In this document: positions 17,475 through 64,000 of the stretch, one piece after another
Layout: each line of letters begins with the position of its first letter
Numbering within the stretch: position 1 is the first letter of the stretch
DNA from: an uncultured Candidatus Saccharibacteria bacterium
GTDB taxonomy: Bacteria > Patescibacteriota > Minisyncoccia > UBA6257 > UBA11618
Assembly (NCBI GenBank): GCA_964362125.1
Contig: CAYICS010000001.1
Coordinates: 18,052-82,051 of the forward strand
Length of the DNA stretch: 64,000 nt
Direction of reading: 5' to 3'
Notes under the pieces: model-generated
Database searches by the model: none
The model's input: only the letters and a program-made list of their open reading frames with translations
Told to the model about the DNA's origin: nothing
Made by a program: the position numbers and the translations under genes

Positions 17475-17520
17475 CTTATGGCTTATGGCTTATGGCTTAT
17501 CTATGGCTTATGGCTTATAG
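17475..17520 (+). repeat. (TTATGGC) heptamer tandem repeat, 3 perfect and about 3 degenerate copies, covering the start codon and N-terminus of the next gene
   Basis: tcttatggcttatggcttatggcttatctatggcttatggcttatag; each unit contains an ATG. The reverse complement (GCCATAA)4 is present at 14560-14590. Confidence 0.85.
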
Positions 17521-18032
17521 CTTCTGCCGGCGAGCCGCCTGTCTTAATCCTCACCTGGCAGGCTGATAATTATGCTCCCAGCCCCTATCAAGGCAAAAAA
17601 CTGCCCAGCGCCGGCACCCCCATCAAGGTGGCTTTGCAAGTTTTTCAACATCGATTGGTCGGTGACATTACTAATAAAGAAATCCGCTGGTTTTTAAATA
17701 ATCAGCTGGCGGCCGCTGGCATTGGCCGCACCACTTTTACTTTCAATGCCCCCGGCTTAGGTGAAGACGGGGTGGTGGTCAGGGCTCAGGTGCGGGATTA
17801 CCACGGTCAGGAGGAAGATGGTTTTGCGGCTATTCCCATTGTCCAGCCTGAAGTGGTGATTGATCAATCGGCCCTACCCACCCTGCAGGGGCTTTTCTAC
17901 TTTTTTAACATCAACAGCGAAGCAGAACTGGAAACCAGCTGGCAGGACAATAATCATAACATCACTCTCAGAGCCCACCGTCGGACCAATCCCTTAGAGT
18001 CGGCCCAAGCCACCCTTTTGAAAAAACAATGA
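17478..18032 (+). CDS. hypothetical protein with repeat-encoded hydrophobic N-terminus (MAYGLWLIYGLWLIASAG)
   Basis: First in-frame ATG lies inside the heptamer array; the ORF-track start at 17433 overlaps the upstream gene. Confidence 0.4.
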   Translation: MAYGLWLIYGLWLIASAGEPPVLILTWQADNYAPSPYQGKKLPSAGTPIKVALQVFQHRLVGDITNKEIRWFLNNQLAAAGIGRTTFTFNAPGLGEDGVVVRAQVRDYHGQEEDGFAAIPIVQPEVVIDQSALPTLQGLFYFFNINSEAELETSWQDNNHNITLRAHRRTNPLESAQATLLKKQ

Positions 18033-32451: not shown

Positions 32452-33324
32452 GTGAAAACCCTCCTTTTAATAGATGCTCACGCTCTGATTTATCGTTTTT
32501 TTCATGCCTTGCCGGCTCTAACCACGCCCGACAACCAGCCCATCGGCGCTGTTTATGGTTTAGCCAATGTCATTTTAAAAATCCTCCGCGAGCATCAACC
32601 TGATTATCTGGCCGCCTGTTTTGACCGGCCGGAAGAGACTTTTCGGCGAAAAGAATATGCGCAATACAAAGCCACCCGGCAGGCGCCGCCTGATGAGCTG
32701 ATCTCCCAATTTAAGATCAGCCGTGAGCTTTTGGATAAATTCCAGATTCGGGTGGTGGAGATGCCGGGCTTTGAAGCTGATGATTTAATCGGCACTTTGG
32801 CGGAGAAATTTAAAAAGGAACCCAATCTGAAAATTGTGATATTTTCCGGCGACCTCGATCTTCTGCAGTTGGTGGAAAACGATAAAGTAGTGGTGGAATT
32901 TCTCAAAACCGGCATCAGCGACACCATGACCTATGATGAAAAAGCCGTGGCAGCCCGCTATGATTTAAGGCCTGAACAACTGCCCGATCTCAAGGGTTTA
33001 TTGGGCGATGTTTCTGATAATATTCCCGGGGTAAAGGGAGTGGGGCCGAAAACCGCAGGCCCCTTGATTAAAAAATACGGCACGCTGGAAAATCTTTTTG
33101 AAAATCTTTGGCAGGTGTCGGATAAAATTGGTCTGAAATTAACTGATAAAAAAGAGGAGGCGTTGTTTTCTAAAAAACTGGCCACTATTAAAAGAGATGT
33201 GCCGCTGTTTGTCCAGTCGCTTAATGACTTGAAATTAGAAGCGATTGATAGGGGTGGTTTAGTTAAATATTTCGAAAATTTGGGATTTATCAGTTTGATA
33301 AAAAGATTGAACTCAACTAATTAA
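32452..33324 (+). CDS. polA: DNA polymerase I 5'-3' exonuclease (FEN) domain as a stand-alone ORF
   Basis: LLLIDAHALIYRFFHA, GFEADDLIGT, helix-hairpin-helix GVKGVGPKTA motifs of Pol I 5'-nuclease; stop at 33322-33324. Confidence 0.8.
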   Translation: MKTLLLIDAHALIYRFFHALPALTTPDNQPIGAVYGLANVILKILREHQPDYLAACFDRPEETFRRKEYAQYKATRQAPPDELISQFKISRELLDKFQIRVVEMPGFEADDLIGTLAEKFKKEPNLKIVIFSGDLDLLQLVENDKVVVEFLKTGISDTMTYDEKAVAARYDLRPEQLPDLKGLLGDVSDNIPGVKGVGPKTAGPLIKKYGTLENLFENLWQVSDKIGLKLTDKKEEALFSKKLATIKRDVPLFVQSLNDLKLEAIDRGGLVKYFENLGFISLIKRLNSTN

Positions 33325-33345
33325 ACGATCGTCTAATTAGTTGAG
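33309..33345. repeat. palindromic element centred on CGATCG (actcaactaatta-aacgatcgtc-taattagttgagt) overlapping the 5'-nuclease stop codon
   Basis: Perfect 13-bp arms; related CGATCG-core palindromes at 40113, 47552 and 63441. Confidence 0.6.
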
Positions 33346-33398
33346 TAGTTGAGTAATAGTAAGTAATAGTAAAATAATTAGGTAACTAGGCTTCTAGT

Positions 33399-33442
33399 AA
33401 AAATAAAAAACCCCGGGTCGCGGCTCGATAGCCGCGCCCGGG
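33399..33442 (-). terminator. intrinsic terminator for the antisense small gene (ccccgggtcgcggct / agccgcgcccggg stem, then a T-run on the minus strand)
   Basis: Hairpin at 33411-33442 preceded on the plus strand by AAAAATAAAAAA. Confidence 0.55.
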
Positions 33443-33463
33443 ACCGCCGGTGGTCGTCCCGCA

Positions 33464-33670
33464 TCAGGCGCCCCATTTTCTTTTTGTAGGGGCTTCTGCT
33501 TGCAAAAAATCTGCAATCCGGAAGGCCGCTGGGTTGTTATCGGCGATCAATTCCACCGATTCAAAATCCCAATGACCTTCTTTCTCTTCACTTCGACTTA
33601 CATAAACAGTCATTTTGCCCTTTTCCCCGGGCACAGCCGTCAGGATTCTAAGAATCACTGGCGTGTTCAT
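33464..33670 (-). CDS. hypothetical small protein (68 aa) encoded antisense between the two polA halves
   Basis: ORF with its own terminator; no homology recognised. Confidence 0.3.
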   Translation of the reverse strand: MNTPVILRILTAVPGEKGKMTVYVSRSEEKEGHWDFESVELIADNNPAAFRIADFLQAEAPTKRKWGA

Positions 33671-33741
33671 CTCTGTCCTCCAAAGAACTTTGATATCTTG
33701 CCGAAAGTTCCGAATTCCGGCATTATATTAAGACTAGCAAT

Positions 33742-34869
33742 ATGGTTAAAAGTTTGTCAATAGGCCCGGTTTTAGAGGCAATGCGCCGGCGTGGAATCTT
33801 GGTTGACCGCGAAAAGTTAAAAGTCAAAAGTGAAAAGTTAAGAAAAGAAATTAGGAAATTGGCGGCAGAAATTAAGAAATTAGCGGGCGAAGATTTTAAT
33901 CTCAATTCGCCCCGGCAGTTGTCGCGGATTCTTTTTGAGAAATTAAAGTTGGTTAAAGGCGGCCGCCGCACCAAAACCGGCCTCCGCTCCACCAGCGAGG
34001 CGGCTTTGGATAATTTGCGCGGCAGCCATCGGATTATTGACAAGATTCTCCAATACCGCGAGCAATTCAAACTACTTTCCACCTATCTTGAGCCGTGGCT
34101 GAAATATAGTCGGGCCAGCCGCGACGGCCGCATCCACCCCACTTTTCTTCAGGATGCCACCGCTACCGGCCGCCTCACTTGCCAAAATCCCAATCTGCAG
34201 AATGTCCCCTCACAATTACGTGAGGTTCTCGTGGCGGCTGCTGGCCACACTTTGATTTCTGTTGATTATTCCCAGATTGAACTGCGGGTGCTGGCTACTG
34301 TCACCAAAGACCCGGCTTTGCTTGAGGCCTTTGCCAAAGATTTGGATATTCACCAGCTGACAGCCAGTAAGGTTTTTAATGTACCACTGGAGAAGGTCAC
34401 TAAAGAGCAGCGCAATCTGGCCAAGACTTTAAACTTTGGCGTCATCTATGGAATGGGAGCAGCTGCCTTTGCCCGCGTCTCTGGCTTGAGTCGCAAAGAG
34501 GCCGAACAGTTTATCGAAGAGTATTTTCTGGAGTTTAAAAAGGTTCGGCAGTGGCAGGAGAAAGTAAAATGGGAATTGCAACAGAATGGTTATGTTGAGA
34601 ATTTAGAAGGCCAGCGGCGAGAGCTTGGCCCGGGAGAGGAACGAGCGGCTATCAATTTCCCTATTCAGAGTTTGGCAGCTCATATTATCAAGCTAGCGAT
34701 GATCAAAACCGCTAAATATCCTTTATTGCTTTCCATTCACGACCAATTGGTCTTTGAGATAGAAAAAGGTAAAATAAAAGGGAGCAGCGCCGCCATTAAA
34801 GAAATTATGGAATCAGTTTATAAACTGGCAGTGCCGCTCAAGGTTAATGTCACTTTGGGGAGTTGGTAA
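33742..34869 (+). CDS. polA: DNA polymerase I polymerase domain (no 3'-5' exonuclease domain) as a separate ORF
   Basis: Family A polymerase motifs: DYSQIELRVLA (motif A), RNLAKTLNFGVIYGMGA (motif B), SIHDQLVFE (motif C). Confidence 0.8.
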   Translation: MVKSLSIGPVLEAMRRRGILVDREKLKVKSEKLRKEIRKLAAEIKKLAGEDFNLNSPRQLSRILFEKLKLVKGGRRTKTGLRSTSEAALDNLRGSHRIIDKILQYREQFKLLSTYLEPWLKYSRASRDGRIHPTFLQDATATGRLTCQNPNLQNVPSQLREVLVAAAGHTLISVDYSQIELRVLATVTKDPALLEAFAKDLDIHQLTASKVFNVPLEKVTKEQRNLAKTLNFGVIYGMGAAAFARVSGLSRKEAEQFIEEYFLEFKKVRQWQEKVKWELQQNGYVENLEGQRRELGPGEERAAINFPIQSLAAHIIKLAMIKTAKYPLLLSIHDQLVFEIEKGKIKGSSAAIKEIMESVYKLAVPLKVNVTLGSW

Positions 34870-35953
34870 AACAGAAACAGCGCCGGCGGCCGCACTGGAA
34901 AAAGCTTTATTTGGAGCTTTGGTGGCGGTAATGGGCGAGGCGATTGTTGTTTATGACCGGAGTTTTAAGGTGAGTGTTTTCAATCAGCGGGCCGAGGATA
35001 TTTTTCGGATTAAGGCCAGTGAGATAGTCGGCCAGAATTTTACCCTCGAGCGCGCCCAGGAAGCAAAATGGCAGGCTCTGTCACCGGTGATTTATGCGTC
35101 GCTGGCGCCAACCGTAGTGCGATTGTCAGAGGTGGGTGTTTCTCCTGAGGTTTTAAAAATTATTTTAGAAAATCCCCACCGCGAGTTGGAGACGGCCACG
35201 ATTGAGGTGGGCGATCACTTTCTAAAAATTATTAAAGATAAGAGCCGCGAGGCCGAACTTTTAAAAGCCAAAAGCGAGTTTATCACCATTGCCGGGCATC
35301 AATTACGGACACCGACGACGGCAGCTAATTGGGCTTTTGAAAATCTTAAAAAAGTTTCTGGATTAGATACTGAGGCCCAACAATTAATTGACACTGGCTA
35401 TAAAGCCGTCCAAGCGGCTTTGAAAATAATTAATGATTTATTAAACGCCGCTCAGATTGAAGAGGGCAGATTTGGTTTTCAGTTTCAAGATGTCAATCTG
35501 GTGGAATTTTTGGATCAGGTTTTAGCCGGGGCTTTGCCAGCGGCCAAAGAGTCCAAAATAAATATTTACTTCGATCGCCCCGAGGAAAATGAAGTAATAA
35601 TTTCAGCTGACTCCAACCGGCTGGCGATGGCGGTTACTAACCTGATTGATAATGCTATTAAATATAATGTTTCTGGGGGTGAGGTGACAGTGAAATTAGA
35701 GGTAAAAGACAGTCAGGCGCAGGTGAGCGTCAAAGACACTGGCGTCGGAGTTAAAGAAGAAGACATTGCTAAACTGTTCAGCAAATTTTTCCGTGGCGAA
35801 AATATTAAGAAAACCGTTCCCACTGGCTCTGGGCTAGGTCTTTACATCGCGAAAAACATTATTGAGGCGCATAAGGGTAAAGTTTGGGTGGAGTCAGTGC
35901 CAAATAGAGGCTCTACTTTTTATTTCTCCATCCCTCTAAAAGTTAAAAGTTGA
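34847..35953 (+). CDS. sensor histidine kinase (PAS-like N-terminus, HisKA plus HATPase_c)
   Basis: H-box ITIAGHQLRTPTT, N-box NLIDNAIKYN, G1 DTGVGV, G2 GSGLGL. Confidence 0.75.
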   Translation: MSLWGVGKTETAPAAALEKALFGALVAVMGEAIVVYDRSFKVSVFNQRAEDIFRIKASEIVGQNFTLERAQEAKWQALSPVIYASLAPTVVRLSEVGVSPEVLKIILENPHRELETATIEVGDHFLKIIKDKSREAELLKAKSEFITIAGHQLRTPTTAANWAFENLKKVSGLDTEAQQLIDTGYKAVQAALKIINDLLNAAQIEEGRFGFQFQDVNLVEFLDQVLAGALPAAKESKINIYFDRPEENEVIISADSNRLAMAVTNLIDNAIKYNVSGGEVTVKLEVKDSQAQVSVKDTGVGVKEEDIAKLFSKFFRGENIKKTVPTGSGLGLYIAKNIIEAHKGKVWVESVPNRGSTFYFSIPLKVKS

Positions 35954-35962
35954 AAGTTTAAA

Positions 35963-36334
35963 GTGAAAAATGACAATTTAAAATTTAAAAATGAGTTTAA
36001 AATCAGGCTTTATAGATGGGTTTTGAGATTAGTTAAATTCATTGACAAATTACCAAGAGATTCTACTTGTGAGATTATGGGCAAACAATTACTTAGGAGT
36101 GGAACGAGTATCCTTGCTAATTATATAGAAGCTCTTTCTGCGAGTTCAAAGCGTGATTTTATCAATTTTTTCACTCATTCCTTGAAATCTGCCAATGAAT
36201 CAAAGCTTTGGCTTACTCTCTTAAGAGATATGATCAAGGGCGACGAGAAAGAATTAGCTTGGTTATTGAAAGAATTGGTAGAGATTGCTAATATTTTAGC
36301 TTCAAGTTTGTTGACCTTGAAAGGCAAGAGGTGA
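35963..36334 (+). CDS. four-helix-bundle protein (TIGR02436 / 23S rRNA intervening-sequence-protein family)
   Basis: Characteristic LRSGTSILANYIEA...SLKSANESKLWLTLL motifs; the gene is flanked by matching 9-10-mers. Confidence 0.6.
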   Translation: MKNDNLKFKNEFKIRLYRWVLRLVKFIDKLPRDSTCEIMGKQLLRSGTSILANYIEALSASSKRDFINFFTHSLKSANESKLWLTLLRDMIKGDEKELAWLLKELVEIANILASSLLTLKGKR

Positions 36335-38925: not shown

Positions 38926-40740
38926 TTATACAATATCAGAAAGATGTGGTTCATGCAACTTCTTAATGATGGAGGCCGGGATGATGCCCAGCTTCTTGTT
39001 ATAGCGAGCCTGAATTTTTCGGCGCCGCTCAGTTTCAGTAATTGTTTTTTTAATGGAGTCAGTGAGGAAGTCGGCGTAGAGGATTACCTCGCCTTTGATG
39101 GAACGTGAAGCTCGGCCAGCCATTTGCATCAAACTGCGGTGATTGCGCAAAAAACCCTCTCGGTCCGCGTCAAGAATCGCAACCAGAGAAACTTCCGGCA
39201 GATCCAGCCCCTCCCGTAAAAGATTGATGCCCACCAACACATCGACATCGCCCCGCCGCAATTGATTGAGAATTTTCGGTCGCTGCAGAGTTTTGATTTC
39301 CGAGTGCATATAATTGGCGCGGATGCCCCGGGCCAAGAGAAATTCTGTGAGGTTTTCCGAGGCGCGTTTGGTGAGAGTGAGAGCCAGGACTCGTTCGTTG
39401 TTGCGGACACGCTTGGTGATTTCTTCAATCAGATTAGCTACTTGAGAAACCGCCGGCCGGACAATAATTTTTGGATCAAGGATGCCGGTGGGGCGAACCA
39501 ATTGTTCCGCCACCCGGCCGCGCTCTAATTCATATGACCCGGGAGTGGCCGAGACACAAATTGTCTGGCCAATGCGTTGGTTGAATTCTTTAAAAGCGAG
39601 CGGCCGGTTATCAAAGGCTGAAGGCAGACGAAAACCATAATTCACTAAAGTCTGCTTGCGGCGCCGGTCGCTTTCCTGCATCGCCCGCAGTTGAGGAATG
39701 GCAATGTGGGATTCGTCAATAAAGAGCAGAAAGGGGCGGGGGAAGTAGTCAAGTAATGTCAGCGGCGGCTCGCCGGGCTGGCGAAAATCTAAATGGCGGG
39801 AGTAATTTTCAATTCCGTGGACATAGCCTTTTTTCTTAAGCATCTGCAGATCAAAAAGAGTACGGCGTTCCAGCCGGTCGGCTTCTTCAAATTTGCCGGC
39901 GGCCTGCAGTTCGTCCATTCTCTCTTCCATTTCAGTCTTAATGTTGCGCAGAGAGAGATTAAAGAGATGCTGGGGAGTGACCCAAAACTTTGCTGGATAA
40001 ATATCCAGCAAAGTTTGACTTTTGACAGTTGACAATTGATCATTGACCAATTGAATTGTTTTAATTCTTCTTTTTTTGATCTCGATTTCTAGTTTTTCAT
40101 CGGTTACCAAATGTACTTTTACTAAAGTAATTCTACGATCGTGGAGATAGTTTAGTAGAGCGAATTGACCGAGCGCGGGTTCTTGGTTGGGGCGAGCTTT
40201 TTCATAACGGAGGAATTGCAGATGGCGCTCAATGTCTTTTTCGTTGATTATTTGCCCGACGCGCATTTTCAAGCGGGCTTTGCGATAGTTTTCCGGACTG
40301 CCGAGGCCGTAGATGCAGGAAACAGAAGCGATCACAATTGCATCCGGCCGCGACAAAACACTTTGAATGGCGGCGTGGCGCAGTTTATCAATATCCAGAT
40401 TAATCCGGGCGTCTTTTTGAATATAGGTTTGAGTCAGCGGTAGATAGGCCTCGGGTTGGTAGTAGTCGTAAAAAGAAACAAAATAGTGGACAGCATTGCT
40501 GGGGAAGAAGTTTTTGAATTCCTGATAGAGCTGGGCGGCGAGAGTCTTGTTGGGAGAAATGATCAGTGTTGGCAGGTCGGTTTTGGCAATCACCGAAGCC
40601 ATGGTGTAGGTTTTGCCTGATCCGGTGACGCCCAAAAGCACCTGGTCTTTCAGGTTTTCGTCGAGGCCGCCAATTAGCTTTTTAATAGCTTGAGGCTGGT
40701 CGCCTTTGGGCTGAAATTGAGAAATTAGATGGAAACTCAT
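38926..40740 (-). CDS. uvrB: excinuclease ABC subunit B (UvrB)
   Basis: Walker A GVTGSGKTYTMA, beta-hairpin region, DESH box (IDESHIAIPQ), helicase C motifs. Contains half of a CGATCG palindromic element in frame at ~40113-40140. Confidence 0.9.
   Translation of the reverse strand: MSFHLISQFQPKGDQPQAIKKLIGGLDENLKDQVLLGVTGSGKTYTMASVIAKTDLPTLIISPNKTLAAQLYQEFKNFFPSNAVHYFVSFYDYYQPEAYLPLTQTYIQKDARINLDIDKLRHAAIQSVLSRPDAIVIASVSCIYGLGSPENYRKARLKMRVGQIINEKDIERHLQFLRYEKARPNQEPALGQFALLNYLHDRRITLVKVHLVTDEKLEIEIKKRRIKTIQLVNDQLSTVKSQTLLDIYPAKFWVTPQHLFNLSLRNIKTEMEERMDELQAAGKFEEADRLERRTLFDLQMLKKKGYVHGIENYSRHLDFRQPGEPPLTLLDYFPRPFLLFIDESHIAIPQLRAMQESDRRRKQTLVNYGFRLPSAFDNRPLAFKEFNQRIGQTICVSATPGSYELERGRVAEQLVRPTGILDPKIIVRPAVSQVANLIEEITKRVRNNERVLALTLTKRASENLTEFLLARGIRANYMHSEIKTLQRPKILNQLRRGDVDVLVGINLLREGLDLPEVSLVAILDADREGFLRNHRSLMQMAGRASRSIKGEVILYADFLTDSIKKTITETERRRKIQARYNKKLGIIPASIIKKLHEPHLSDIV
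40113..40140. repeat. degenerate copy (left arm plus core) of the CGATCG-centred palindromic element (tactaaagtaattctacgatcgt), in frame inside uvrB
   Basis: 22-mer identical to the left half of the 63441-63478 palindrome; followed by tttagtagag as in the other copies. Confidence 0.6.
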
Positions 40741-41384: not shown

Positions 41385-42626
41385 ATGCGCGATTTTTTTA
41401 ATCGTCTTTTAGAGAAATTTAGAGATATTCCCCTCCTAAAAGTTTTGTATAAACTGCCGTTGGCGCCGTGGTTTTATCATACCTTTCTGGCTTTTATCGG
41501 CGCCTGCATTTATGGATTTCCCGCCAGTAAAATTTTTGTGATTGGCGTGACTGGCACCAAAGGCAAATCAACTGTCATTGAGTTGATTAATGCTATTCTT
41601 GAGGCGGCCGGTAAAAAAACCGCTCTCCTTTCTTCGATTTGGGTGAAAGTCGGCGATAGTTCCCAGCTTAATCCTTTTGGCAATACCATGCCCGGCCGTT
41701 TTTTTATTCAAAACTTTTTAAGTGAGGCGGTAGAGGCTGGTTGCCAGTACGCAATTGTGGAAACAACTTCCCAAGGCGTGGCTTTGAACCGCCATCTGTT
41801 TATTTATTGGCGGGCCGGCGTCTTTACTAATCTCTCGGCCGAACATATTGAGGCCCACGGGTCTTTTGAAAAATACCGCGAGCAGAAACTAAAATTTTTC
41901 CGCTATGTCCATTCATTGGGCGGCAGGATTTTTGTTAATCAAGACGACCGCAACCATCGATACTTTAAGGAAGTGGTTGGCAACAAAACTTGGTTGTATG
42001 GTAAAAGTGATTTGGGAAGCACGTTGGTGGGGGATTTTAATAGATATAATGTCGGAGCGGCGGTGACGGTGGGGCAGTGGTTAGGAGTTAGTGAAGAGGT
42101 TATTAAAAAAGCAGTTGCGGAATTCCCGGGCGTGCCGGGACGGATGGAGTTTATTCAAAAAAAGCCCTTTGTGATAGTGGTGGATTATGCCCACACCCCA
42201 GATTCTTTGCGTAAAGTTTATGAAACTCTGCGGGCGATTAGTCATCCGGAAATTCCTACAAAACTAATCTGTGTTTTGGGGTCGGCTGGCGGCGGCCGCG
42301 ATCGGTGGAAGCGACCGGAGCTGGGCAGAATTGCCAGCGAAATGTGCGATCAGATTATTTTAACCAACGAGGATCCTTATGATGAACCACCTAGCCAGAT
42401 TTTATCTGAGATAAAATCTGGAATTTCTAATGTCCAATTTTTAATTTCTAATGTTCACGAAATTTTAGACAGACAGGAGGCGATTAGAAAAGCTATCAGC
42501 TTGGCCCAGCCGCGGGATACAGTGGTGATCACTGGCAAAGGTAGTGAGCAGTTTATTCATTTAGCCAACGGTCAGAAGCTGCCCTGGAGTGATAAAGAAA
42601 CTGTTAAGGCAGTGATTAAGGGATAG
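41385..42626 (+). CDS. Mur ligase family protein (MurE-like UDP-N-acetylmuramoyl-tripeptide synthetase, lacks the N-terminal domain)
   Basis: P-loop VIGVTGTKGKSTV; middle and C-terminal Mur ligase domains (DYAHTPDSL, GSAGGGRDRWKRPELG). Confidence 0.6.
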   Translation: MRDFFNRLLEKFRDIPLLKVLYKLPLAPWFYHTFLAFIGACIYGFPASKIFVIGVTGTKGKSTVIELINAILEAAGKKTALLSSIWVKVGDSSQLNPFGNTMPGRFFIQNFLSEAVEAGCQYAIVETTSQGVALNRHLFIYWRAGVFTNLSAEHIEAHGSFEKYREQKLKFFRYVHSLGGRIFVNQDDRNHRYFKEVVGNKTWLYGKSDLGSTLVGDFNRYNVGAAVTVGQWLGVSEEVIKKAVAEFPGVPGRMEFIQKKPFVIVVDYAHTPDSLRKVYETLRAISHPEIPTKLICVLGSAGGGRDRWKRPELGRIASEMCDQIILTNEDPYDEPPSQILSEIKSGISNVQFLISNVHEILDRQEAIRKAISLAQPRDTVVITGKGSEQFIHLANGQKLPWSDKETVKAVIKG

Positions 42627-46422: not shown

Positions 46423-47205
46423 ATGGGTCGCTTCATCCTGATAATTGTTTTGAGTCTGGTTTCTACTTTAGTTTTTACTTTCCGGGTGTTGGGGCAGGAA
46501 AGCGGCCCCAAGCGAACGCCGCCCCATCCAGATTATTTTTTTGAAAAGCTCGAGAAGATATTAGGTATCGCTTTCGAGAGGGGCCAAGTCTCCTACTTTT
46601 TTTATATCGATGATGAGGGCACAATTACCCATATTGAATATAATGATCTAGATTCGGAAATGAGATTTATAATGCCTTTGGAAACTTTTATAGAACGCCG
46701 CTTGTCAACTGAAGAAGATCGGGCAAGCTTCAGGCGGCTGCTTGGTCAATACCGGGACGCTGTTCGCTACCAGAATTTAGTTGAGGCTTATAATCAAGGG
46801 GGACAGCTGTTAAGGAATTTGCAAGGCAGATTAAAAAATATGAGGAAAATGATTATAAGAATTATCGGAATAGAAAATACAGAAAATCTTCAAGAATTAT
46901 TTGATTCGGCCAAGGTAGGTAATAAGGCTTTTGAGAAGTACTTGTCTAAACTGCTGAATCCTCGTACCGATGAGCCGTTGGCAGAGGAGGATAAACAGAG
47001 ACTGCGTGATTATTTTCGGATTTTAGAATTGGGAAATCAAATAGAGGCATCAAGACAGAAGCTCCTACCAAGAATTGACTGGTTAAGAGCAAGAATTCTG
47101 GGATTGCCGCCTCCGCCACCATCCAGAAATCAACCAGCTATTCCTCGACGTCGGCCGCCGAATCTGCCCGGTGGCGGTGGTGGTGGTATACCGAGATTAA
47201 GGTGA
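46423..47205 (+). CDS. hypothetical secreted coiled-coil protein with C-terminal PPNLPGGGGGGIPRLR tail
   Basis: Signal peptide; same unusual C-terminal motif as the 3294-3980 protein; its stop overlaps the start of the downstream Wzy_C-like gene. Confidence 0.4.
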   Translation: MGRFILIIVLSLVSTLVFTFRVLGQESGPKRTPPHPDYFFEKLEKILGIAFERGQVSYFFYIDDEGTITHIEYNDLDSEMRFIMPLETFIERRLSTEEDRASFRRLLGQYRDAVRYQNLVEAYNQGGQLLRNLQGRLKNMRKMIIRIIGIENTENLQELFDSAKVGNKAFEKYLSKLLNPRTDEPLAEEDKQRLRDYFRILELGNQIEASRQKLLPRIDWLRARILGLPPPPPSRNQPAIPRRRPPNLPGGGGGGIPRLR

Positions 47206-48299
47206 TTAAATTACTAGTCTGGATTGGCTTAGCAATTGTTATCGGATTATATATCAGGCCTAAGTGGATTTATGGTTTTTTGGCGATTGGGGGAGTGATT
47301 GAGGCGTTAATTGGTTTTGGCCAATTTCTTCAGCAGAAAAGTTTGGGCTTGCAATTTTTCGGCGAGCCGGTTTTAAGTCCGCTTAATCCAGATGTGGCGC
47401 GGATTTTTATTGACACCGGCGGCTGGCTTGCCAGCCGCGGCCTTGGCGAAGGCTGGGGGAGATTACTGCGCGCCTACGGCACCTTTCCTCACCCTAATAT
47501 CTTGGCGGCATTTCTTGTTCTCGCTATAATTTCTTTTAACTATCTATCTACTAAACTTATTCGACGATCGTCGAATAAGTTTAGTAGCGGTGGATTATTT
47601 TTTGGGACAGCAGGGATTTTTATTTTATGGCTTGGCCTGATTCTCACTTTTTCCCGCGCCGGCTGGCTGGCGGCTTTGATTATCACTTTGTTTTACCTGA
47701 TTGACCGCTGTCCGACAGTGGTCAGATGGCGGCTGGCTGCCATAGTTATTATCACAGTCATTGGTCTTGTTGTTATTTTCCATTGGGCTGTTTTGCCGCG
47801 GCTGGCTTTTACCGACAGTTTTGTTATTCAGGAAAGAATTAGTGATTACCAGCGCGCTTGGCAATTAATTAAAGAAAAGCCGTTCTTTGGTCATGGTTTG
47901 ACTTTGGCAATGGCAGAGAGGCCGATTCATAATTTGTATCTGACTATTGCTGTTGAAATTGGTCTTTTCGGTCTGGCGGTGTTTTTGGTTTTTGTGATTT
48001 TTACATTAATTGAAAATTGGAAATTGCCTGCCCGCCATCGGTCTGAGCCTCAGGCACTGGCAGGCGGGAAAATTGGAAATTCCCCAGCAGCAATAATGCT
48101 CGTGGCATTATTGCTGCTGGGTCTGTTTGATCATTTTCTCTGGACTTTGCGGCCGGGCTTGGCTATGCTGTGGTTGGTAATTGGATTGCTATGGCAGTCT
48201 GATCGCTCTCGTAGTTCAATGGATAGAATATCTCCCTCCGAAGGAGGTGATGCAGGTTCGATTCCTGCCGAGAGCACAAACAAAAATACGGATGTCTGA
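47202..48299 (+). CDS. O-antigen ligase/Wzy_C-family polytopic membrane protein; the 3' part of the ORF reads through two palindromic repeat elements and the tRNA-Arg gene
   Basis: Multiple TM helices; FSRAGWLAALIITLFYLI Wzy_C-type motif. The true stop is uncertain: the ORF covers 48205-48276, which folds as a canonical tRNA. Confidence 0.5.
   Translation: MIKLLVWIGLAIVIGLYIRPKWIYGFLAIGGVIEALIGFGQFLQQKSLGLQFFGEPVLSPLNPDVARIFIDTGGWLASRGLGEGWGRLLRAYGTFPHPNILAAFLVLAIISFNYLSTKLIRRSSNKFSSGGLFFGTAGIFILWLGLILTFSRAGWLAALIITLFYLIDRCPTVVRWRLAAIVIITVIGLVVIFHWAVLPRLAFTDSFVIQERISDYQRAWQLIKEKPFFGHGLTLAMAERPIHNLYLTIAVEIGLFGLAVFLVFVIFTLIENWKLPARHRSEPQALAGGKIGNSPAAIMLVALLLLGLFDHFLWTLRPGLAMLWLVIGLLWQSDRSRSSMDRISPSEGGDAGSIPAESTNKNTDV
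47552..47591. repeat. perfect 40-bp palindrome ctactaaacttattcgacgatcgtcgaataagtttagtag (CGATCG core), in frame inside the Wzy_C-like CDS
   Basis: Variant of the 63441-63478 palindrome with compensatory changes on both arms; encodes STKLIRRSSNKFSS. Confidence 0.8.
48027..48068. repeat. 42-nt GC-rich palindromic element, copy 2 (cctgcccgccatcggtctgagcctcaggcactggcaggcggg), in frame inside the CDS and flanked by a 13-bp direct repeat aaaattggaaatt
   Basis: Copy of 14694-14738; the flanking direct repeat resembles a target-site duplication. Confidence 0.7.
48205..48276 (+). tRNA. tRNA-Arg (anticodon CCG)
   Basis: Manual fold: acceptor gctctcg/cgagagc; D-arm gttc-aatggata-gaat; anticodon stem tctcc/ggagg with loop cTCCGaa; variable loop tgat; T-arm gcagg-TTCGATT-cctgc; discriminator A. 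No encoded CCA. Confidence 0.8.
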
Positions 48300-48318
48300 C
48301 ATCCGTATTTTTGTTTGT
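48277..48318 (+). terminator. perfect 21-bp hairpin (acaaacaaaaatacggatgtc tga catccgtatttttgtttgt) immediately after the tRNA
   Basis: Perfect inverted repeat with T-rich descending arm. Confidence 0.5.
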
Positions 48319-57508: not shown

Positions 57509-57829
57509 TGGTGGAAGTGGGGAGTTTGACCTCCCGTCCGAAACTTTTCCGCCAGATAGTTCTACAAGCTTAGTCCTTCGATAAACTCGGGACAAATTTT
57601 GCCGCTCAACTTCTGTTTTCAGCCACGGCCCTCTGAAAACATAGCTTGATTTATAACACCGCTGAATCGCCTATCAAGCTTCAGCGAGCGATGCCGCTTT
57701 AGGCAAAAGCCAAAGCGGGAGTTCGATTAAATGCGTTGGCAAATAATCTTTTTGCAACGGATTTAGGAGACGTTGCCGCTCCGCTTGCCTATCTGGTTTC
57801 AATGTTCCGTCGAAGCCTTTGCCACTCCC
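57509..57829 (-). ncRNA. ssrA: tmRNA (ssrA)
   Basis: Minus strand: 5' GGGAGUGGCAAAGGCUUCGACGG (canonical GGGG.UGA..GGNUUCGACGG), 3' GGACGGGAGGUCAAACUCCCCACUUCCACCA (T-arm plus acceptor plus encoded CCA; G3:U70 pair). Internal tag frame GCCAACGCAUUUAAUCGAACUCCCGCUUUGGCUUUUGCCUAA gives ANAFNRTPALAFA*. Confidence 0.85.
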
Positions 57830-59126: not shown

Positions 59127-59756
59127 ATGAGTACAGTTTCTGTGGATCAGCGGTTCGCTTTACTGGCTGCCATTGGCGCCAACGCCCACTGGGACGATCT
59201 TTCAAGAGATGGGGTCCAGTTGGGCATCAAAGAAGCGCAACGGGCAGGAGAGGAATTCACCAGGTTTGTGAAGAATGGTTTTCGGATGCAAATAGTAGGT
59301 GATTTCTTCACCCGAACAGAAGATTTTACCATCTCAATCCCAGCCCTTACCCGCCCCACCCTCGAGGAGATTCGGGCAAGATATGATTGGGTCAGAAAGA
59401 TCACAAGAGACCTGTCGCCAACCGAGGCAATAATGATGGAGTTGGGGACTCTTCTTCGTCCCAACGAAGAAGAGATTAACAGAAAGGAATATCGCCCCCG
59501 TCATATCCCCTTCACTTATTTGGGGCTTCAGCAGGGAATGTGGCTTATTGAGCATCAGGATGACCAAGAATTAGCTCCTGTCAAGGCTCTTTGCGGCAAG
59601 GTTTCTATTGACCTTCTTGGTATAGAAGTGCTTAGCTCAAAAGGCTTTAGTTTCTTCCCGTGCCTCGATGGTAATAGCGGGCCGTGGGAGTTGATTTGGA
59701 GTTATGCTGAGGTTGGTCTGTCCCGCAATATTCGCGTTGCCCGTCCTTGCCAGTAG
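59127..59756 (+). CDS. hypothetical protein (about 210 aa); codon usage appears AGA/AGG-rich relative to neighbouring genes
   Basis: RBS plus ATG, own palindromic operator and terminator; no recognised domain. Confidence 0.4.
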   Translation: MSTVSVDQRFALLAAIGANAHWDDLSRDGVQLGIKEAQRAGEEFTRFVKNGFRMQIVGDFFTRTEDFTISIPALTRPTLEEIRARYDWVRKITRDLSPTEAIMMELGTLLRPNEEEINRKEYRPRHIPFTYLGLQQGMWLIEHQDDQELAPVKALCGKVSIDLLGIEVLSSKGFSFFPCLDGNSGPWELIWSYAEVGLSRNIRVARPCQ

Positions 59757-60173: not shown

Positions 60174-60589
60174 TTAACTATAGAGAAATAGCTCATCGTT
60201 GGTTATATCAAGCCCTTTTTGACCTTAATAACGCTAAGAAACTTTTCCCTGAAGGTAATTTTTCCTACACTTGTTTTTTCTCTGAACAATCGGCCCAAAA
60301 AGCTCTTAAGGGGTACTTGATTTTTAATAGAAATATAGATATTAATATTCACGCAATCAGTAAACTTCTGATGAGAGCCAGCCAGCTTGACGGGTCATTT
60401 AAAAATTTTATTGATGAAGGAAAAGGATTAGATAAGCATTATTTAAGCACTCGTTATCCTGATGCGCTTCCTGATCCTTTGGTACCATTTGAGGCTTATA
60501 CTAAAGAAGAAGCGCAGACAGCTATTGCTAGCGCGCAGAAGATTTTTGATCTCTGCCAAAAATTAACCGGCTATGCTAAAGATAAATAA
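60170..60589 (+). CDS. HEPN domain protein (partner of the upstream MNT; HepT/MntA-type module)
   Basis: pfam05168-like pattern CFFSEQSAQKALKGYL...NIHAISKLL and the conserved RY motif (LSTRYPD). Confidence 0.65.
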   Translation: MINYREIAHRWLYQALFDLNNAKKLFPEGNFSYTCFFSEQSAQKALKGYLIFNRNIDINIHAISKLLMRASQLDGSFKNFIDEGKGLDKHYLSTRYPDALPDPLVPFEAYTKEEAQTAIASAQKIFDLCQKLTGYAKDK

Positions 60590-63431
60590 AGATTTTAACC
60601 TGCCCAAAGTTGAGGAAGAGGTTTTAAGTTTTTGGAGAAAAAATAGGGTGTTTGAAAAATCGCTTGCCCTTCGACAGGCTCAGGGCAAAAAACACTACGT
60701 GTTTTTTGAAGGCCCGCCCACGGCCAATGCCAAGCCGGGGATTCATCATGTTCTGGCAAGGGTTTTCAAGGATATAATTCTTCGCTATAAAACGATGAGC
60801 GGTTTTTTTGTGGCGCGCCGCGCCGGCTGGGACACCCATGGCTTGCCGGTGGAAATTGAGATTGAAAAGAAACTGGGTTTTAAAAACAAACAGGATATTG
60901 AAAAATACGGCATTACCAAGTTCAATAAACTGGCGCGAGAGTCGGTCTGGCAATATAAAAAAGATTGGGAGGATTTAACCGAGCGCATCGGCTTTTGGCT
61001 GGATTTGGAACACCCTTATATCACTTACGAAAATCAATACATCGAAAAGCTCTGGGGGATTTTTAAAGAGATTGATAAGCGGGGATTGCTTTATAAAAGC
61101 CATAAGGTGGTGCCGTGGTGCAGCCGTTGCGGCACGGCTTTGTCTTCGCATGAATTGGCGCAAGGGTATGAAGAAACAAAAGACCTGGCGGTCTTTGTTA
61201 AATTTCCAATATCCAATTCCCAATTTCCAAAAACTTATATTTTTTCTTGGACGACGACGCCCTGGACTTTGCCGGGGAATGTGGCCTTGGCCATAAATCC
61301 GAAGCATAAATTTGTGAAGGTTCCTGATCCAGAGGAAAAGGGAAGTTGGTTAATTTTGGAAAAAGAAAGCGTCCACCGTCTCTGGCCCAAAATCGCTTCT
61401 TCGCAAGAAGCGATTATTGGGGTAAAAGAGTTGCTGGGATTAGAGTACGAGCCGTTGTTCAAAATCCCCGCCCTTCAATCCCCCACTTCTTATAAAATTT
61501 ATCCGGCGGATTTTGTGACAGCCGATGAAGGCACGGGCGTGGTCCATACAGCCGTGATGTATGGAGAAGATGACTATGAGTTGGGCAAAAAAGTCGGCTT
61601 GCCGCAATTTCATACTGTTGATGAGCAGGGCCGGTTCATTAAAGAGGTACCGGTTGTCGGGGGAATGTATGTGAAGGCGCCGGAGACGGAAAAGAAAATT
61701 ATTGAACACCTTAAAGCCCAGAGCTTATTGCTTAAGGTCGAACCATACACTCACGATTACCCTTTCTGTTGGCGCTGCGGCACACCCGTGCTTTATTATG
61801 CTCGCGATTCCTGGTTTATCGCGATGAGCAAATTACGCAAGGAGTTGCAGGCGGCCAATAAAAAAATCAACTGGATTCCCGGACATTTGCGCGAGGGTCG
61901 ATTTGGTGAATGGTTGAAAGAAGTGAAAGACTGGGCGATCTCGCGAGAACGATATTGGGCGACCCCGCTGCCAATTTGGATTTGTGTAAAATGTGACAAT
62001 AAAGTTGTAATAAGTAGTAGTAAAGAGATTGAGGAACGCGGCGGCAAGCCGCCCAAAGATTTACACCGTCCGTATATTGATGATGTTGTTTTGAAATGCC
62101 CGGAATGCGGCGGAGAAATGCGGCGGGTAAAAGAAGTGATGGATGTTTGGTTTGATTCGGGAGCAATGCCTTTTGCCAGCGGCGAATATCCGGAAAGATA
62201 TCCAGCTGATTATATTTGTGAAGCTATCGATCAAACCCGCGGCTGGTTTTATACGCTTTTGGCCGTCGGCGTTTTAATGAAAAAAGGGACGCCTTATAAA
62301 AATGTTATTTCTCTTGGGCATGTGCTTGATAAGCAGGGCCGGAAGATGTCTAAGTCGTTGGGCAACACCGTTGATCCTTGGCAGATGATTAATAAATACG
62401 GCATTGATGTTGTCCGTTGGTATTTCTACACCATCAACCCACCGGGGGAGCCAAAAAGATTTGATGAAGGAGATCTAAATTTGGTTTATAGAAGATTTCA
62501 TTCTTTGGTTTACAATTCTTATCTATTTTGGGCGTCTTATAGTATCGATGCTAATCTACGAATGAATGCGAATGATACGAATAGCAATGCGAATGTTTTA
62601 GATCGCTGGATTCTAGCGCGGCTTAACGAGACGACGGCCAAAGTTACAGAGCGGCTTGATGATTATGACATTGGTACAGCGGCTAAGGCGATTGAGCTGC
62701 TGGTAGATGATTTATCCCATTGGTATATTCGCCGCTCGCGGAGGCGACCGGAAGCATTGCCAGTGTTGGGCTATGTTTTACTGGAAATCAGCAAGCTGAT
62801 CGCTCCCTTTACGCCGTTTTTTGCCGAAGCATTATTTCAGTCTCTAAACCCTAAACCCTACACCCTAAACCCTTCTATTCACTTGACCGATTGGCCCAAG
62901 GCCGACAAAAAGCTGATTGATAAAAAACTGCTTGGTCAAATGGCCCAAATCCGGCAGTGGACCAGCCAGGCGTTAGCGGCGCGAGCAGAAGCCGGCATTA
63001 AGGTTCGTCAGCCGCTAGCTAAATTAAAAATTTCCGCCCGAGGCGGATCCCATGCCTACCGGCAGGCAGGCGTCTCTGGCGGAAAAAATGAAAAATTAAA
63101 AATTAATGAGGAGTTATTGAATATCTTAAAAGACGAAGTAAATGTAAAAGAAATTGTTTTTGACAATAAGATCAAAAATGAGATTGAGCTGGATATAAAA
63201 ATCACTCCCGAACTCCGTCAAGAGGGAATTTATCGAGAGCTGGTGCGGCTGATTCAGGATTTCCGCAAAGAGAAAAAACTAAAGCCGCAGGATAAGATTA
63301 AACTGCGCGCTGAATTGCCGGAAGATATGTTAGAAGTGGCGCAAAAGAATGATGAGCAACTACGAAAAGAAGTTAATGCTATTAAAATAGATTATAAGAA
63401 GGCTGGTAAGGTTGACTTAGAGTTGACTTAG
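60573..63431 (+). CDS. ileS: isoleucyl-tRNA synthetase
   Basis: HIGH-type motif PPTANAKPGIHH; KMSKS; CP1 editing domain; C-terminal zinc-binding region. Contains an in-frame CCCTAAA run at 62844-62872. Confidence 0.9.
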   Translation: MLKINKDFNLPKVEEEVLSFWRKNRVFEKSLALRQAQGKKHYVFFEGPPTANAKPGIHHVLARVFKDIILRYKTMSGFFVARRAGWDTHGLPVEIEIEKKLGFKNKQDIEKYGITKFNKLARESVWQYKKDWEDLTERIGFWLDLEHPYITYENQYIEKLWGIFKEIDKRGLLYKSHKVVPWCSRCGTALSSHELAQGYEETKDLAVFVKFPISNSQFPKTYIFSWTTTPWTLPGNVALAINPKHKFVKVPDPEEKGSWLILEKESVHRLWPKIASSQEAIIGVKELLGLEYEPLFKIPALQSPTSYKIYPADFVTADEGTGVVHTAVMYGEDDYELGKKVGLPQFHTVDEQGRFIKEVPVVGGMYVKAPETEKKIIEHLKAQSLLLKVEPYTHDYPFCWRCGTPVLYYARDSWFIAMSKLRKELQAANKKINWIPGHLREGRFGEWLKEVKDWAISRERYWATPLPIWICVKCDNKVVISSSKEIEERGGKPPKDLHRPYIDDVVLKCPECGGEMRRVKEVMDVWFDSGAMPFASGEYPERYPADYICEAIDQTRGWFYTLLAVGVLMKKGTPYKNVISLGHVLDKQGRKMSKSLGNTVDPWQMINKYGIDVVRWYFYTINPPGEPKRFDEGDLNLVYRRFHSLVYNSYLFWASYSIDANLRMNANDTNSNANVLDRWILARLNETTAKVTERLDDYDIGTAAKAIELLVDDLSHWYIRRSRRRPEALPVLGYVLLEISKLIAPFTPFFAEALFQSLNPKPYTLNPSIHLTDWPKADKKLIDKKLLGQMAQIRQWTSQALAARAEAGIKVRQPLAKLKISARGGSHAYRQAGVSGGKNEKLKINEELLNILKDEVNVKEIVFDNKIKNEIELDIKITPELRQEGIYRELVRLIQDFRKEKKLKPQDKIKLRAELPEDMLEVAQKNDEQLRKEVNAIKIDYKKAGKVDLELT

Positions 63432-63440
63432 ATTTGTTGT

Positions 63441-63478
63441 AAGCTTTGCTATTAAATTACTAAAGTAATTCTACGATC
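63441..63478. repeat. perfect 38-bp palindrome tactaaagtaattctacgatcgtagaattactttagta (CGATCG core) between convergent ileS and trpS, followed by tagtaga-type heptamers
   Basis: Direct reading; same family as the 47552 and 40113 copies. Confidence 0.8.
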
Positions 63479-63532
63479 GTAGAATTACTTTAGTAGATTA
63501 GTAGAGATTAGTAGAGTATAGTAGAGTAGTTT

Positions 63533-64000
63533 TTATAACAATCCAAACCTTTCTTTCACAACTTTAATTTTCTCGTTGGCAATTTTATTTGCCAGTTTAC
63601 TGCCGCGCAGGGCGATTTTTTCCAGCTTTTCCGGTTTAGCCAAGAGTCGCGCTTTTTTGCGCCGGAACGGCGCAAAATGTTTAGTAATTAATTTAGCCAG
63701 CGCTTTTTTGAAGCGGACATAAGACTTGCCTTCAAATTCTTTTTCAATCTCCGGGATTTCGCGGCCGGTTAAACCAGAATAGATTGTCAGCAGGTTGCTG
63801 ATCCCCGGCTTGAGTTCCGGGTCAAATTTAATTTCCTTGCCAGAATCAGTAACCGCCGCCTCAATTTTTCCGGCGATGGTTTCTGATTCGTCATCAAGAA
63901 AAAGACAGCCAGCCGAGTCAGACTTGGACATTTTCTTTTCCGGATCGGTTAAGCTCATCAAGCGCGTTACCTTGGTTTGCAGCGGTTGAGGTTCAATAAA
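63533..64000 (-). CDS. trpS: tryptophanyl-tRNA synthetase, C-terminal part (gene continues beyond window end)
   Basis: KMSKS motif (KMSKSDSAG) and the TrpRS C-terminal helical domain. Confidence 0.7.
   Translation of the reverse strand, partial: FIEPQPLQTKVTRLMSLTDPEKKMSKSDSAGCLFLDDESETIAGKIEAAVTDSGKEIKFDPELKPGISNLLTIYSGLTGREIPEIEKEFEGKSYVRFKKALAKLITKHFAPFRRKKARLLAKPEKLEKIALRGSKLANKIANEKIKVVKERFGLL

Follow-up and report, generated by a model that had tools for sequence, protein, structure and literature searches.

Four copies of a short palindromic element, designated A to D, were located in a 64,000-nt stretch of DNA (hereafter the window) on contig CAYICS010000001.1 of an uncultured Candidatus Saccharibacteria bacterium. 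According to the best-supported conclusion of our analysis, these copies belong to a widespread class of protein/palindrome pairs in the candidate phyla radiation (CPR, Patescibacteria), in which a small gene of the PaaX family is bracketed by palindromes. By analogy with these related genomes, we lean towards the view that A-D are putative cognate, operator-like recognition sites of a small dimeric PaaX-family protein. An earlier note on this DNA had called the elements new for this kind of genome; our literature search found no description of such a pairing of palindromes with a PaaX/Cas2-like protein, and the class is apparently undescribed, but it turned out to be widespread across CPR genomes. 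To our knowledge, CPR bacteria represent a large share of bacterial diversity, and almost nothing is known of their gene regulation or small-genome organisation. The class offers a testable protein-DNA pair, in which a small PaaX-family protein goes together with a palindrome of 36-46 bp that is specific to the lineage, lies on both sides of the protein's gene and is found again at gene boundaries.

The palindrome family of the window

The four copies and the tandem repeats derived from their arms are located as follows.

Copy A: 47548-47587, no strand assigned, perfect 40-bp palindrome with 20-nt arms (CTACTAAACTTATTCGACGA and TCGTCGAATAAGTTTAGTAG) in the Wzy_C-like coding sequence (CDS)
Copy B: 63458-63495, no strand assigned, perfect 38-bp palindrome with 19-nt arms (TACTAAAGTAATTCTACGA and TCGTAGAATTACTTTAGTA) between ileS and trpS
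Copy C: 40119-40158, no strand assigned, inside the minus-strand uvrB gene, one arm as in B and the other altered
Copy D: 33311-33346, no strand assigned, 36-bp palindrome with 18-nt arms (ACTCAACTAATTAAACGA and TCGTCTAATTAGTTGAGT) and one mismatched pair, over the FEN stop codon
Reiteration of the B outer-arm motif: 63489-63529, plus strand, TTAGTAG / AGATTAGTAG in about 3-4 tandem copies
Reiteration of the D outer arm: 33338-33372, plus strand, TAGTTGAG in 2.2 and then AGTAATAGTA in 2.1 tandem copies

The centre ACGATCGT is common to all four, and the palindromes of 36-40 bp follow one layout, in which ACT[A/C]AA-N8-ACGA on the left meets TCGT-N8-TT[T/G]AGT on the right. A pattern built from copies A-D themselves (ACTNAANTNATTNNACGATCGTNNAATNANTTNAGT) matched A, B, D and, with 2 mismatches, C in a scan of the window, and none of 100 shuffles contained a match. 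A model-free palindrome scan, requiring at least 15 of 18 paired positions, returned five sites in the window, three of which are A, B and D. Thus, the four CGATCG-centred elements of the earlier note all exist, at coordinates shifted by 4 nt for A (given there as 47552-47591), by 17 nt for B (63441-63478) and by a few nt for C (40113-40140) and D (33309-33345).

Comparison of the copies revealed a true family, in which A and B are perfect palindromes that differ at 3 positions per arm, all compensated, as had been claimed. The attribute 'perfect' does not extend to the remaining members: D departs from A and B at 3-4 further positions per arm, compensated save for its single mismatched pair, and C is identical to B over 24 nt of the plus-strand left arm and core, variable spacer included, but carries 4 substitutions in its right arm. 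Similarly, the octamer TTTAGTAG, which was said to follow every copy, is present in A, B and C, but as the outer end of the palindrome arm itself, and D has TTGAGTAG in its place.

Copy B starts 27 nt past the ileS stop and ends 38 nt short of the trpS stop, the two genes being convergent, while D lies at the end of a CDS for a stand-alone 5'-3' exonuclease (FEN), whose final codons and TAA stop it provides. The 3'-end placement of B and D is shared by most copies in other genomes, whereas A and C, two of the four window copies, are intragenic. The arm-derived repeats directly adjoin B and D, and duplications of the outer motif beside palindromes also occur elsewhere, for example in loci L052 and L075. 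The flanks, covered over 11.6 kb, contained no further copy; the 4 copies thus come from 76 kb in total, a density of about 1 per 16-19 kb. The A-D region was found to be 99.98-100% identical in the assemblies L001, L002, L042 and L043 (Hainich well H51, 0.1 um filter fraction); as the copies are reproduced in independent replicate assemblies from one groundwater well, an assembly artefact was excluded. A search of the window against Rfam gave no known RNA family at the palindromes.

A PaaX-like gene flanked by palindromes in related genomes

We scanned a collection of 185,579 species, represented by one genome each and not including the source genome of the window, with the pattern AANNNATTNNACGATCGTNNAATNNNTT, which leaves 5 of 14 positions per arm free. 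This yielded 41 matches in 39 loci. Perfect palindromes account for 26 of the matches; their arms measure 14-23 nt, apart from one at a contig end that reaches 60 nt. Most matches lie in CPR genomes, namely Saccharibacteria, Liptonbacteria, Gribaldobacteria, Zambryskibacteria, Parcubacteria and Daviesbacteria; the few others include a 'Verrucomicrobiota' bin of 67% GC with three AT-rich copies. Five loci contain a pair of palindromes 0.5-0.9 kb apart around one small gene, and in all five the encoded protein matches PF20803 PaaX_M, the central Cas2-like domain, with 45-71 bits against a cutoff of 24, together with a weak N-terminal winged-helix signal. In three more loci, a PaaX_M-type gene adjoins a palindrome.

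The association also holds in the reverse direction. For this purpose, 80 metagenomic loci were fetched by protein similarity alone, and palindromes with at least 15 of 18 paired positions were counted in the 62 non-redundant ones. Their density reached 2.13/kb within 250 bp of the gene ends, compared with 0.09/kb elsewhere and 0 in shuffles, which corresponds to a 24-fold enrichment around the PaaX-like gene. Flanks of adequate length were available for 49 loci; 34 of these have one palindrome or more and 16 have palindromes on both sides, and at a looser threshold (14 of 20 paired positions) most loci show one on each side. The same arrangement was seen in the independent loci L133-L140.

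The centres, which were not imposed in this test, comprise ACGATCGT, GCGATCGC, CTGATCAG, GCCATGGC, ACGGCCGT and ACAGCTGT, to which extra loci add GCGGCCGC. When the proteins were ordered by similarity, centre and outer motif tracked the protein clade, with examples such as TTAACA-N6-[AG]CGA, TGTCAACAAA-N6-ACGA, GTATACTATA..CTGA and TTTACT[CT]... The half-site type of the window (ACT[A/C]AA-N8-ACGA) is represented by locus L118, whose PaaX-like gene is flanked on both sides by TTTACTCAA-N8-[AG]CGATCG[TC]; the outer motif of these palindromes, ACTCAA, is also that of copy D. PaaX-like loci from the sample of the window (L050, L082, L085, L090 and L117) carry other half-site types, and homologues of the L118 protein come from other samples. 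The bracketing of a PaaX-like gene by palindromes in related genomes lends strong indirect support to the dimeric binding site that the earlier note had offered as one option.

Upstream of the PaaX-like gene, the palindrome centre and the start codon are usually 25-50 nt apart. Copies in other genomes lie 4-80 nt past stop codons; 9 of 10 same-strand intergenic copies in other genomes are closer to the upstream stop than to the downstream start, several copies stand between convergent genes, and near-identical copies occupy separate loci of one genome (e.g. L013/L016 and L019/L026).

The CPR proteins comprise 165-200 amino acids (aa) and are short forms without the ligand-binding (phenylacetyl-CoA) PaaX_C domain. 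They share the conserved motif FDIPE..R..R..L..LGF..LQKSVW, and the AlphaFold model (pLDDT 88) features a winged helix followed by a ferredoxin-like beta-alpha-beta-beta-alpha-beta domain. The best match of this model in the Protein Data Bank was E. coli PaaX (8a39, E = 1.3e-4), which the sequence profile also reaches, and the next matches were the PaaX-like structure 3l09, MarR/PadR/RosR winged-helix proteins, Cas2 and winged-helix centromere binders, with AspA and TubR among the weaker ones. The NCBIfam models of PaaX and Cas2 match below their cutoffs (15-44 bits vs 264 for the PaaX equivalog), and PADLOC returned Cas2 and winged-helix domain hits only. Members are often mis-annotated as 'Cas2' or 'hypothetical', and NCBI names some of them 'CRISPR-associated endonuclease Cas2'; on the practical side, the Cas2 annotation of PaaX-like proteins can yield false CRISPR calls. 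The neighbours of the PaaX-like gene vary across lineages and are stable among strains. No paa genes were found near the CPR genes, no ParA/ParB-type partner was seen beside them, no methyltransferase or endonuclease gene is consistently adjacent, and the IMG/VR viral contigs contained neither protein relatives nor a palindrome of the window type.

Several further observations were made at these loci. In one population (L076-L081), the PaaX-like gene is preceded by up to four CTGATCAG-centred palindromes; a small GC-rich hairpin resembling a terminator comes after two of these, and one strain lacks exactly one 113-bp unit of palindrome and hairpin. Locus L034 begins with a 120-bp perfect palindrome at a contig end (1-120), which probably arose when the assembler folded back at a family palindrome, and many PaaX-like genes (P0121-P0169) sit on contigs of 1-3 kb, suggesting that flanking perfect palindromes break assemblies. 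Perfect palindromes of this kind can therefore confound assembly in practice. Genes of aminoacyl-tRNA synthetases often adjoin PaaX-like genes or palindromes (ThrS, LeuS and SerS, as well as ArgS in L097 and IleS/TrpS in the window), and a RelA/SpoT gene does so once (loci L014, L050, L052, L054, L079 and L083; window 60573-64000).

The anatomy of the sites was described over 82 palindromes; they had been chosen for symmetry, which inflates the symmetry figures that follow. Counted from the centre, positions 1-4 show 96-100% symmetry and identity among the copies of a locus, positions 10-17 combine 94-100% symmetry with 70-95% identity among such copies, the spacer at positions 5-9 is least symmetric with 67-87%, and beyond position 18 symmetry falls to background. 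This bipartite profile looks protein-like and opposite to that of a hairpin, for which a free loop and a constrained stem are predicted. The sites consist of two inverted hexamers 20-24 bp apart, in the window ACT[A/C]AA-N24-TT[T/G]AGT, separated by about 2-2.5 helical turns. Their layout matches the published operator of E. coli PaaX, TGATTC(N27)GAATCA (PMC9493321).

Putative recognition sites and alternative explanations

As outlined above, we favour cautiously a reading of A-D as operator-like sites. The protein, common in CPR, would combine an N-terminal winged helix with a Cas2-like dimerisation domain in the absence of PaaX_C, and its dimer would cover a symmetric footprint of about 36-40 bp, similar to the E. 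coli PaaX operator. Each half-site contains a lineage-specific outer motif (ACT[A/C]AA in the window), about 10-17 nt from the centre and presumably contacted by the winged helix, then a spacer of 6-8 nt under little constraint and a strictly conserved centre, NCGA facing TCGN. In related genomes, the site centred about 25-50 nt before the start codon of the protein's own gene suggests autorepression. At gene boundaries, mostly just past stops, a bound dimer may serve as a roadblock or insulator, and the RNA of such a copy could also fold into a hairpin of -16 to -29 kcal/mol. The elements are evidently copied between loci and land occasionally in a permissive protein loop, surviving there only when stop-free. 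By the same analogy, the genome of the window probably encodes such a protein, which may bind A-D.

Several points weigh against this interpretation. No PaaX-like open reading frame (ORF) was found in the window and its 11.6-kb flanks (76 kb searched), which leaves the link to this genome to analogy. None of the window copies lies in an obvious promoter: B is between convergent genes, A and C are intragenic, and D covers a stop codon, with the next start 414 bp further downstream. The 3'-end placement in other genomes, with nine of ten same-strand copies nearer the upstream stop, is unusual for a repressor regulon. The perfect symmetry over 38-40 bp, differing spacers included, exceeds the need of a dimeric protein, quite apart from the inflation caused by selecting the 82 palindromes for symmetry. 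The placement past stops, the gain of seven residues in each CDS copy and the arm shared by B and C point to a spread similar to that of repetitive extragenic palindromic (REP) sequences or Rickettsia palindromic elements (RPEs).

For the perfect symmetry across differing spacers, an extra cause is needed, and template-switch correction within the palindrome or a hairpin role are the candidates. The window also contains 12 perfect hairpins with a stem of at least 11 nt, compared with about 0.25 expected, among them 39985-40016 (uvrB), 48083-48121 (Wzy_C-like), 42395-42421 (Mur ligase), 59449-59474 and 61391-61415 (ileS). The hairpins of uvrB and of the Wzy_C-like gene each have an arm that specifies a conserved peptide (IYPAKFW and ALLLLG, respectively) and an arm that specifies a lineage-specific or inserted one. 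The Mur ligase hairpin directly abuts an array of heptanucleotide repeats. As far as can be judged from these sequences, the excess looks like the product of template-switch (quasipalindrome-correction) mutation.

Two copies lie inside coding sequences, both in frame within the following host genes.

Wzy_C-like ORF: 47202-48299, plus strand, 365 codons, O-antigen-ligase-like membrane protein, host of A
uvrB: 38926-40740, minus strand, 604 aa, host of C

Copy A encodes ..(S)TKLIRRSSNKFS(S).., a basic loop between predicted transmembrane helices, and C, read in the uvrB frame, encodes LLNYLHDRRITLV(K). Comparison with orthologues, proposed by the earlier note as a check, revealed that both proteins carry additional peptide. 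The UvrB segment with C spans 26 residues in the aligned window protein vs 19 in 102 of 120 homologues, i.e. 7 extra residues. The Wzy_C-like protein has 7+4 extra residues relative to its syntenic orthologue in L049 (GCA_964363475.1, 54% identical), which reads LYNK, a seven-residue gap, KF, a four-residue gap and LF opposite the window peptide LSTKLIRRSSNKFSSGGLF. The net gain is thus 7 residues (21 nt) per CDS copy; opposite the outer arms, the alignment shows AT-rich codons that existed before.

Frame analysis showed that an A-type arm has a stop-free reading in two of its three frames, whereas a B-type arm contains stops in all three. The four substitutions of C convert the B-type reading LLK*FY into the stop-free LLNYLH of the uvrB frame. 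Since the identical 24-nt arm includes the 'free', otherwise variable spacer, B and C were probably copied between loci and share a recent common origin, by copying or gene conversion, and the substitutions argue that selection, after the copying, kept the uvrB reading frame open. The nearest UvrB homologue is 70% identical, and the homologues are annotated as Patescibacteria, Harrisonbacteria, Liptonbacteria or Paceibacterota, so that the organism is a CPR bacterium (Paceibacteria). In two of them the same loop also carries a palindrome, namely a degenerate GCGATCGC-centred one in P0003 and a ACGGCCGT-centred one with the arms TTGACGG and CCGTCAA in P0004; the contig of P0003 (L047) has, in addition, a good family palindrome (ACTAACACCTGACGA followed by TCGT...) 41 bp upstream of uvrB. 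These sites were recorded at 984 and 1617 of L047 and 1362 of L048. The UvrB loop is either a recurrent landing site or an old intragenic site that is being kept. That the cores of the three species, ACGATCGT, GCGATCGC and ACGGCCGT, differ yet remain symmetric hints at intragenic copies being kept functional.

Some features of the host genes and of the D locus were recorded in passing. UvrB of the whole clade is about 600 aa long and gives no match to the UVR (UvrC-interaction) domain; a UvrB_inter match is also absent from the window protein. The Wzy_C-like ORF resembles its orthologue up to about residue 333, and a tRNA-Arg(CCG) gene (48205-48277) lies within its 3' end. Directly after this tRNA gene comes a 21-bp perfect hairpin (48276-48318), at which one replicate assembly contig ends. 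PolA is split (32452-34869) into a 290-aa 5'-3' exonuclease ORF and a 375-aa DNA_pol_A ORF, which overlap by a few bases in L049 and are 417 bp apart in the window. The spacer begins with D and contains the arm-derived tandem repeats, a GC-rich hairpin and an opposite-strand 68-aa ORF without a Pfam match.

Taken as selfish or domesticated miniature mobile elements similar to REPs or RPEs, the palindromes would spread by copy-and-paste, possibly mobilised or maintained by the bracketed winged helix-turn-helix/Cas2-like protein, and the insertions in coding loops would be tolerated by-products. We regard this explanation as possible but unlikely; it overlaps in part with the recognition-site reading, as one protein could both bind and mobilise its sites. 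The peptide added to the CDS copies relative to orthologues speaks for it, as do the 24 nt shared by B and C together with changes in C that are precisely those needed to lose the stop, a 42-bp perfect palindrome of the L097 family inside ArgS of L097, the near-identical copies at different loci of one genome, the preference for 3' gene ends over promoters, the REP/RAYT-like bracketing of a gene by repeats and the nuclease-type fold of Cas2. On the other hand, the borders of A, B and D show no direct repeat (target-site duplication) of the kind that flanks a miniature inverted-repeat transposable element, the copy density is low, and the net CDS insertion amounts to 21 nt rather than the whole 36-40 bp. 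No presence/absence polymorphism was found, the replicate assemblies being identical, and the sole structural variant seen, the loss of a 113-bp unit between direct copies, is explained by homologous recombination. Furthermore, the FDIPE...QKSVW motif also occurs in bona fide PaaX repressors and hence gives no evidence of catalysis, the PaaX-like gene carries no signs of mobility, its neighbours being stable among strains, and nothing was found in viral contigs.

A related and somewhat more doubtful proposal is that protein and palindromes form a new self-maintaining pair of the REP/RAYT kind, in which a Cas2-fold protein that is not a transposase would recognise the palindromes and propagate or homogenise them. 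The palindromes would then act as protein-dependent gene-boundary elements (terminators or insulators) that are found occasionally in loops of essential proteins.

Alternatively, A-D could act independently of any protein, as stem-loops of RNA or extruded DNA that terminate transcription or protect mRNA 3' ends, the two roles in which REP stem-loops of E. coli are known. Very stable RNA hairpins are indeed predicted for A (-29.4 kcal/mol, z = -8.5), B (-24.8 kcal/mol) and D (-16.2 kcal/mol), with z values between -4 and -9, the arm differences are compensated, and the location of B between convergent genes, of D on a stop codon and of other-genome copies 4-80 nt past stops would suit such a role. 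We nevertheless consider it improbable. The fold is lost in copy C (-7.1 kcal/mol, z = -1.3), and no U/T tract follows A, B, C or D, whose stems are AT-rich, which does not agree with an intrinsic terminator. Compensation had been taken by the earlier note as a sign of selection for hairpin formation, which it does not show by itself, given that the inner spacer is the least symmetric part over the 82 palindromes: the would-be loop at the centre is most conserved and self-complementary, and the inner stem (positions 5-9) least symmetric. Hairpins would also leave unexplained the 24-fold enrichment at one gene family and the co-variation of motif and protein clade.

Recognition of CGATCG by a restriction-modification or methylation system (PvuI-type, cf. 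the methyltransferase link proposed for HIP1 with GCGATCGC) can hardly account for the data: although the centres are always Type-II-like palindromes of 6-8 bp (CGATCG, TGATCA, CCATGG, CGGCCG, CAGCTG and GCGGCCGC), the conservation extends as far as an outer motif at a distance of 10-17 nt, and the adjacent genes do not consistently include a methyltransferase or an endonuclease. CGATCG is not an over-represented word of the PvuI or HIP1 type: its 13 occurrences in the window, compared with 10.5 expected, amount to neither enrichment nor depletion (25 of 100 shuffles reach 13), and nine other occurrences lack palindromic context.

Further candidates were rejected. A cyanobacterial origin with HIP1, suggested by the CGATCG core and the heptamer repeats, does not agree with the UvrB homologues, which are Patescibacteria, or with the frequency of CGATCG. 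The LexA 'Cheo box' (GAAC-N4-GTTC) resembles some foreign copies (GAACGATCGTTC), but the window copies read CTACGATCGTAG, CGACGATCGTCG and AAACGATCGTCT. A DNA-repair (SOS-like) regulon had been hinted at by C in uvrB, D at FEN/polA, the L047 site 41 bp upstream of uvrB and an L139 site in front of the gene for a 3-methyladenine glycosylase; when 30 neighbouring genes were annotated with Pfam, no repair theme emerged. An aminoacyl-tRNA synthetase or translation regulon, to which the neighbours ThrS, LeuS, SerS, ArgS, IleS/TrpS and RelA had pointed, was unconvincing, with 8 of 160 genes near palindromes vs 11 of 551 far from them and a query set drawn from the 'near' genes. A phage origin was dismissed for lack of protein relatives and of a window-type palindrome in IMG/VR.

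The window is also rich in heptanucleotide tandem repeats, with 27 period-7 arrays vs 0-2 in shuffles. Fourteen of the 27 lie inside CDSs (KsgA with four, uvrB, Mur ligase and ileS with three), and examples are found at 7387-8084, 14560-14831, 17475-17523, 35937-35990, 40022-40054, 42422-42452, 61201-61230 and 62844-62873. They resemble the cyanobacterial STRR repeats, and the uvrB array falls in a length-variable region. The other CPR loci fetched contain a median of 1.2 such arrays per 10 kb, with up to 12.5 in the Liptonbacteria locus L003. Apart from these arrays, the CDS of a UvrD-like helicase carries at its 3' end (3092-3251) 5.3 copies of a 30-nt unit, which encode 10-residue repeats, and a tmRNA gene (57509-57829, minus strand, 125 bits) adjoins smpB.

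If the PaaX-like protein does bind its palindromes, it may be among the most widespread regulators or architectural proteins of the CPR and would come with a ready-made specificity code, since outer motif and centre co-vary with the protein clade. If, instead, the palindromes are mobile, they would constitute a REP/RAYT-like system that relies on another protein fold, as well as the second case, after Rickettsia, of palindromes inside essential CDSs.

Comparison with known systems

The sites parS (bound by ParB) and cre (bound by CcpA) are palindromic protein-binding sites able to work inside coding sequence. Unlike these systems, A-D share no sequence similarity with either site, and no ParA/ParB-type partner was seen beside the PaaX-like gene.

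With cyanobacterial HIP1 and the small dispersed repeats (SDR), which Elhai et al. (2008, 2015) reportedly described within heptamer tandem repeats, the family shares a CGATCG or GCGATCGC core, an abundance of heptanucleotide tandem repeats and arm-derived repeats abutting B and D. HIP1 is the 8-mer GCGATCGC, occurring about once per kb, and has a proposed methyltransferase link. By contrast, GCGATCGC occurs once in the window, CGATCG stands at chance frequency, the unit measures 36-40 bp and the host is a CPR bacterium.

The in-frame occurrence of palindromic DNA in essential genes (uvrB and the Wzy_C-like gene, ArgS in L097), where it encodes a short peptide in a permissive loop, is reminiscent of RPEs, and the analogy drawn by the earlier note stands in this respect. 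Membership does not: RPEs are 100-150 bp long and confined to Rickettsia, whereas the elements described here are zero-loop palindromes of 36-40 bp in a CPR host with a net gain of 7 residues. We know of no dedicated protein gene flanked by RPEs.

REPs bracket the gene of their RAYT transposase, an IS200/IS605-type HUH tyrosine (Y1) transposase. Like REP/REPIN-RAYT systems, in which short extragenic palindromes number tens to hundreds of copies, the CPR family appears to consist of 20-40 bp palindromes dispersed mainly just downstream of genes, with a single-copy gene bracketed by a repeat family that is found elsewhere in the genome and a repeat type that co-varies with the protein lineage. 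The gene bracketed in related genomes encodes, unlike RAYT, a winged helix-turn-helix and PaaX_M/Cas2-like protein rather than a transposase, and the 76 kb covered in the genome of the window gave no such gene of either type; the copy number appears far lower (4 copies in 76 kb), and some copies (2 of 4 in the window) are intragenic. REPs are, moreover, imperfect hairpins with a conserved 5' GTAG, in contrast to the perfect zero-loop palindromes found here.

The PaaX repressor of the phenylacetate catabolon of E. coli and Pseudomonas differs from the CPR proteins in several respects, as the latter, at 165-200 aa and without PaaX_C, score far below the PaaX equivalog cutoff and have no paa genes nearby. 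Their sites also depart from PaaX operators in the strictly conserved central octamer, in being often perfect over 36-46 bp and in their positions, which include both flanks of the protein's gene, the 3' ends of other genes and even coding sequence. Nevertheless, both proteins have the same fold, a winged helix joined to a Cas2-like dimerisation domain, both sets of sites contain widely spaced inverted hexamers (TGATTC-N27-GAATCA for PaaX and ACTAAA-N24-TTTAGT here), and in both cases a site lies over the promoter region of the protein's own gene, as seen in related CPR genomes that include L118 with the half-site type of the window.

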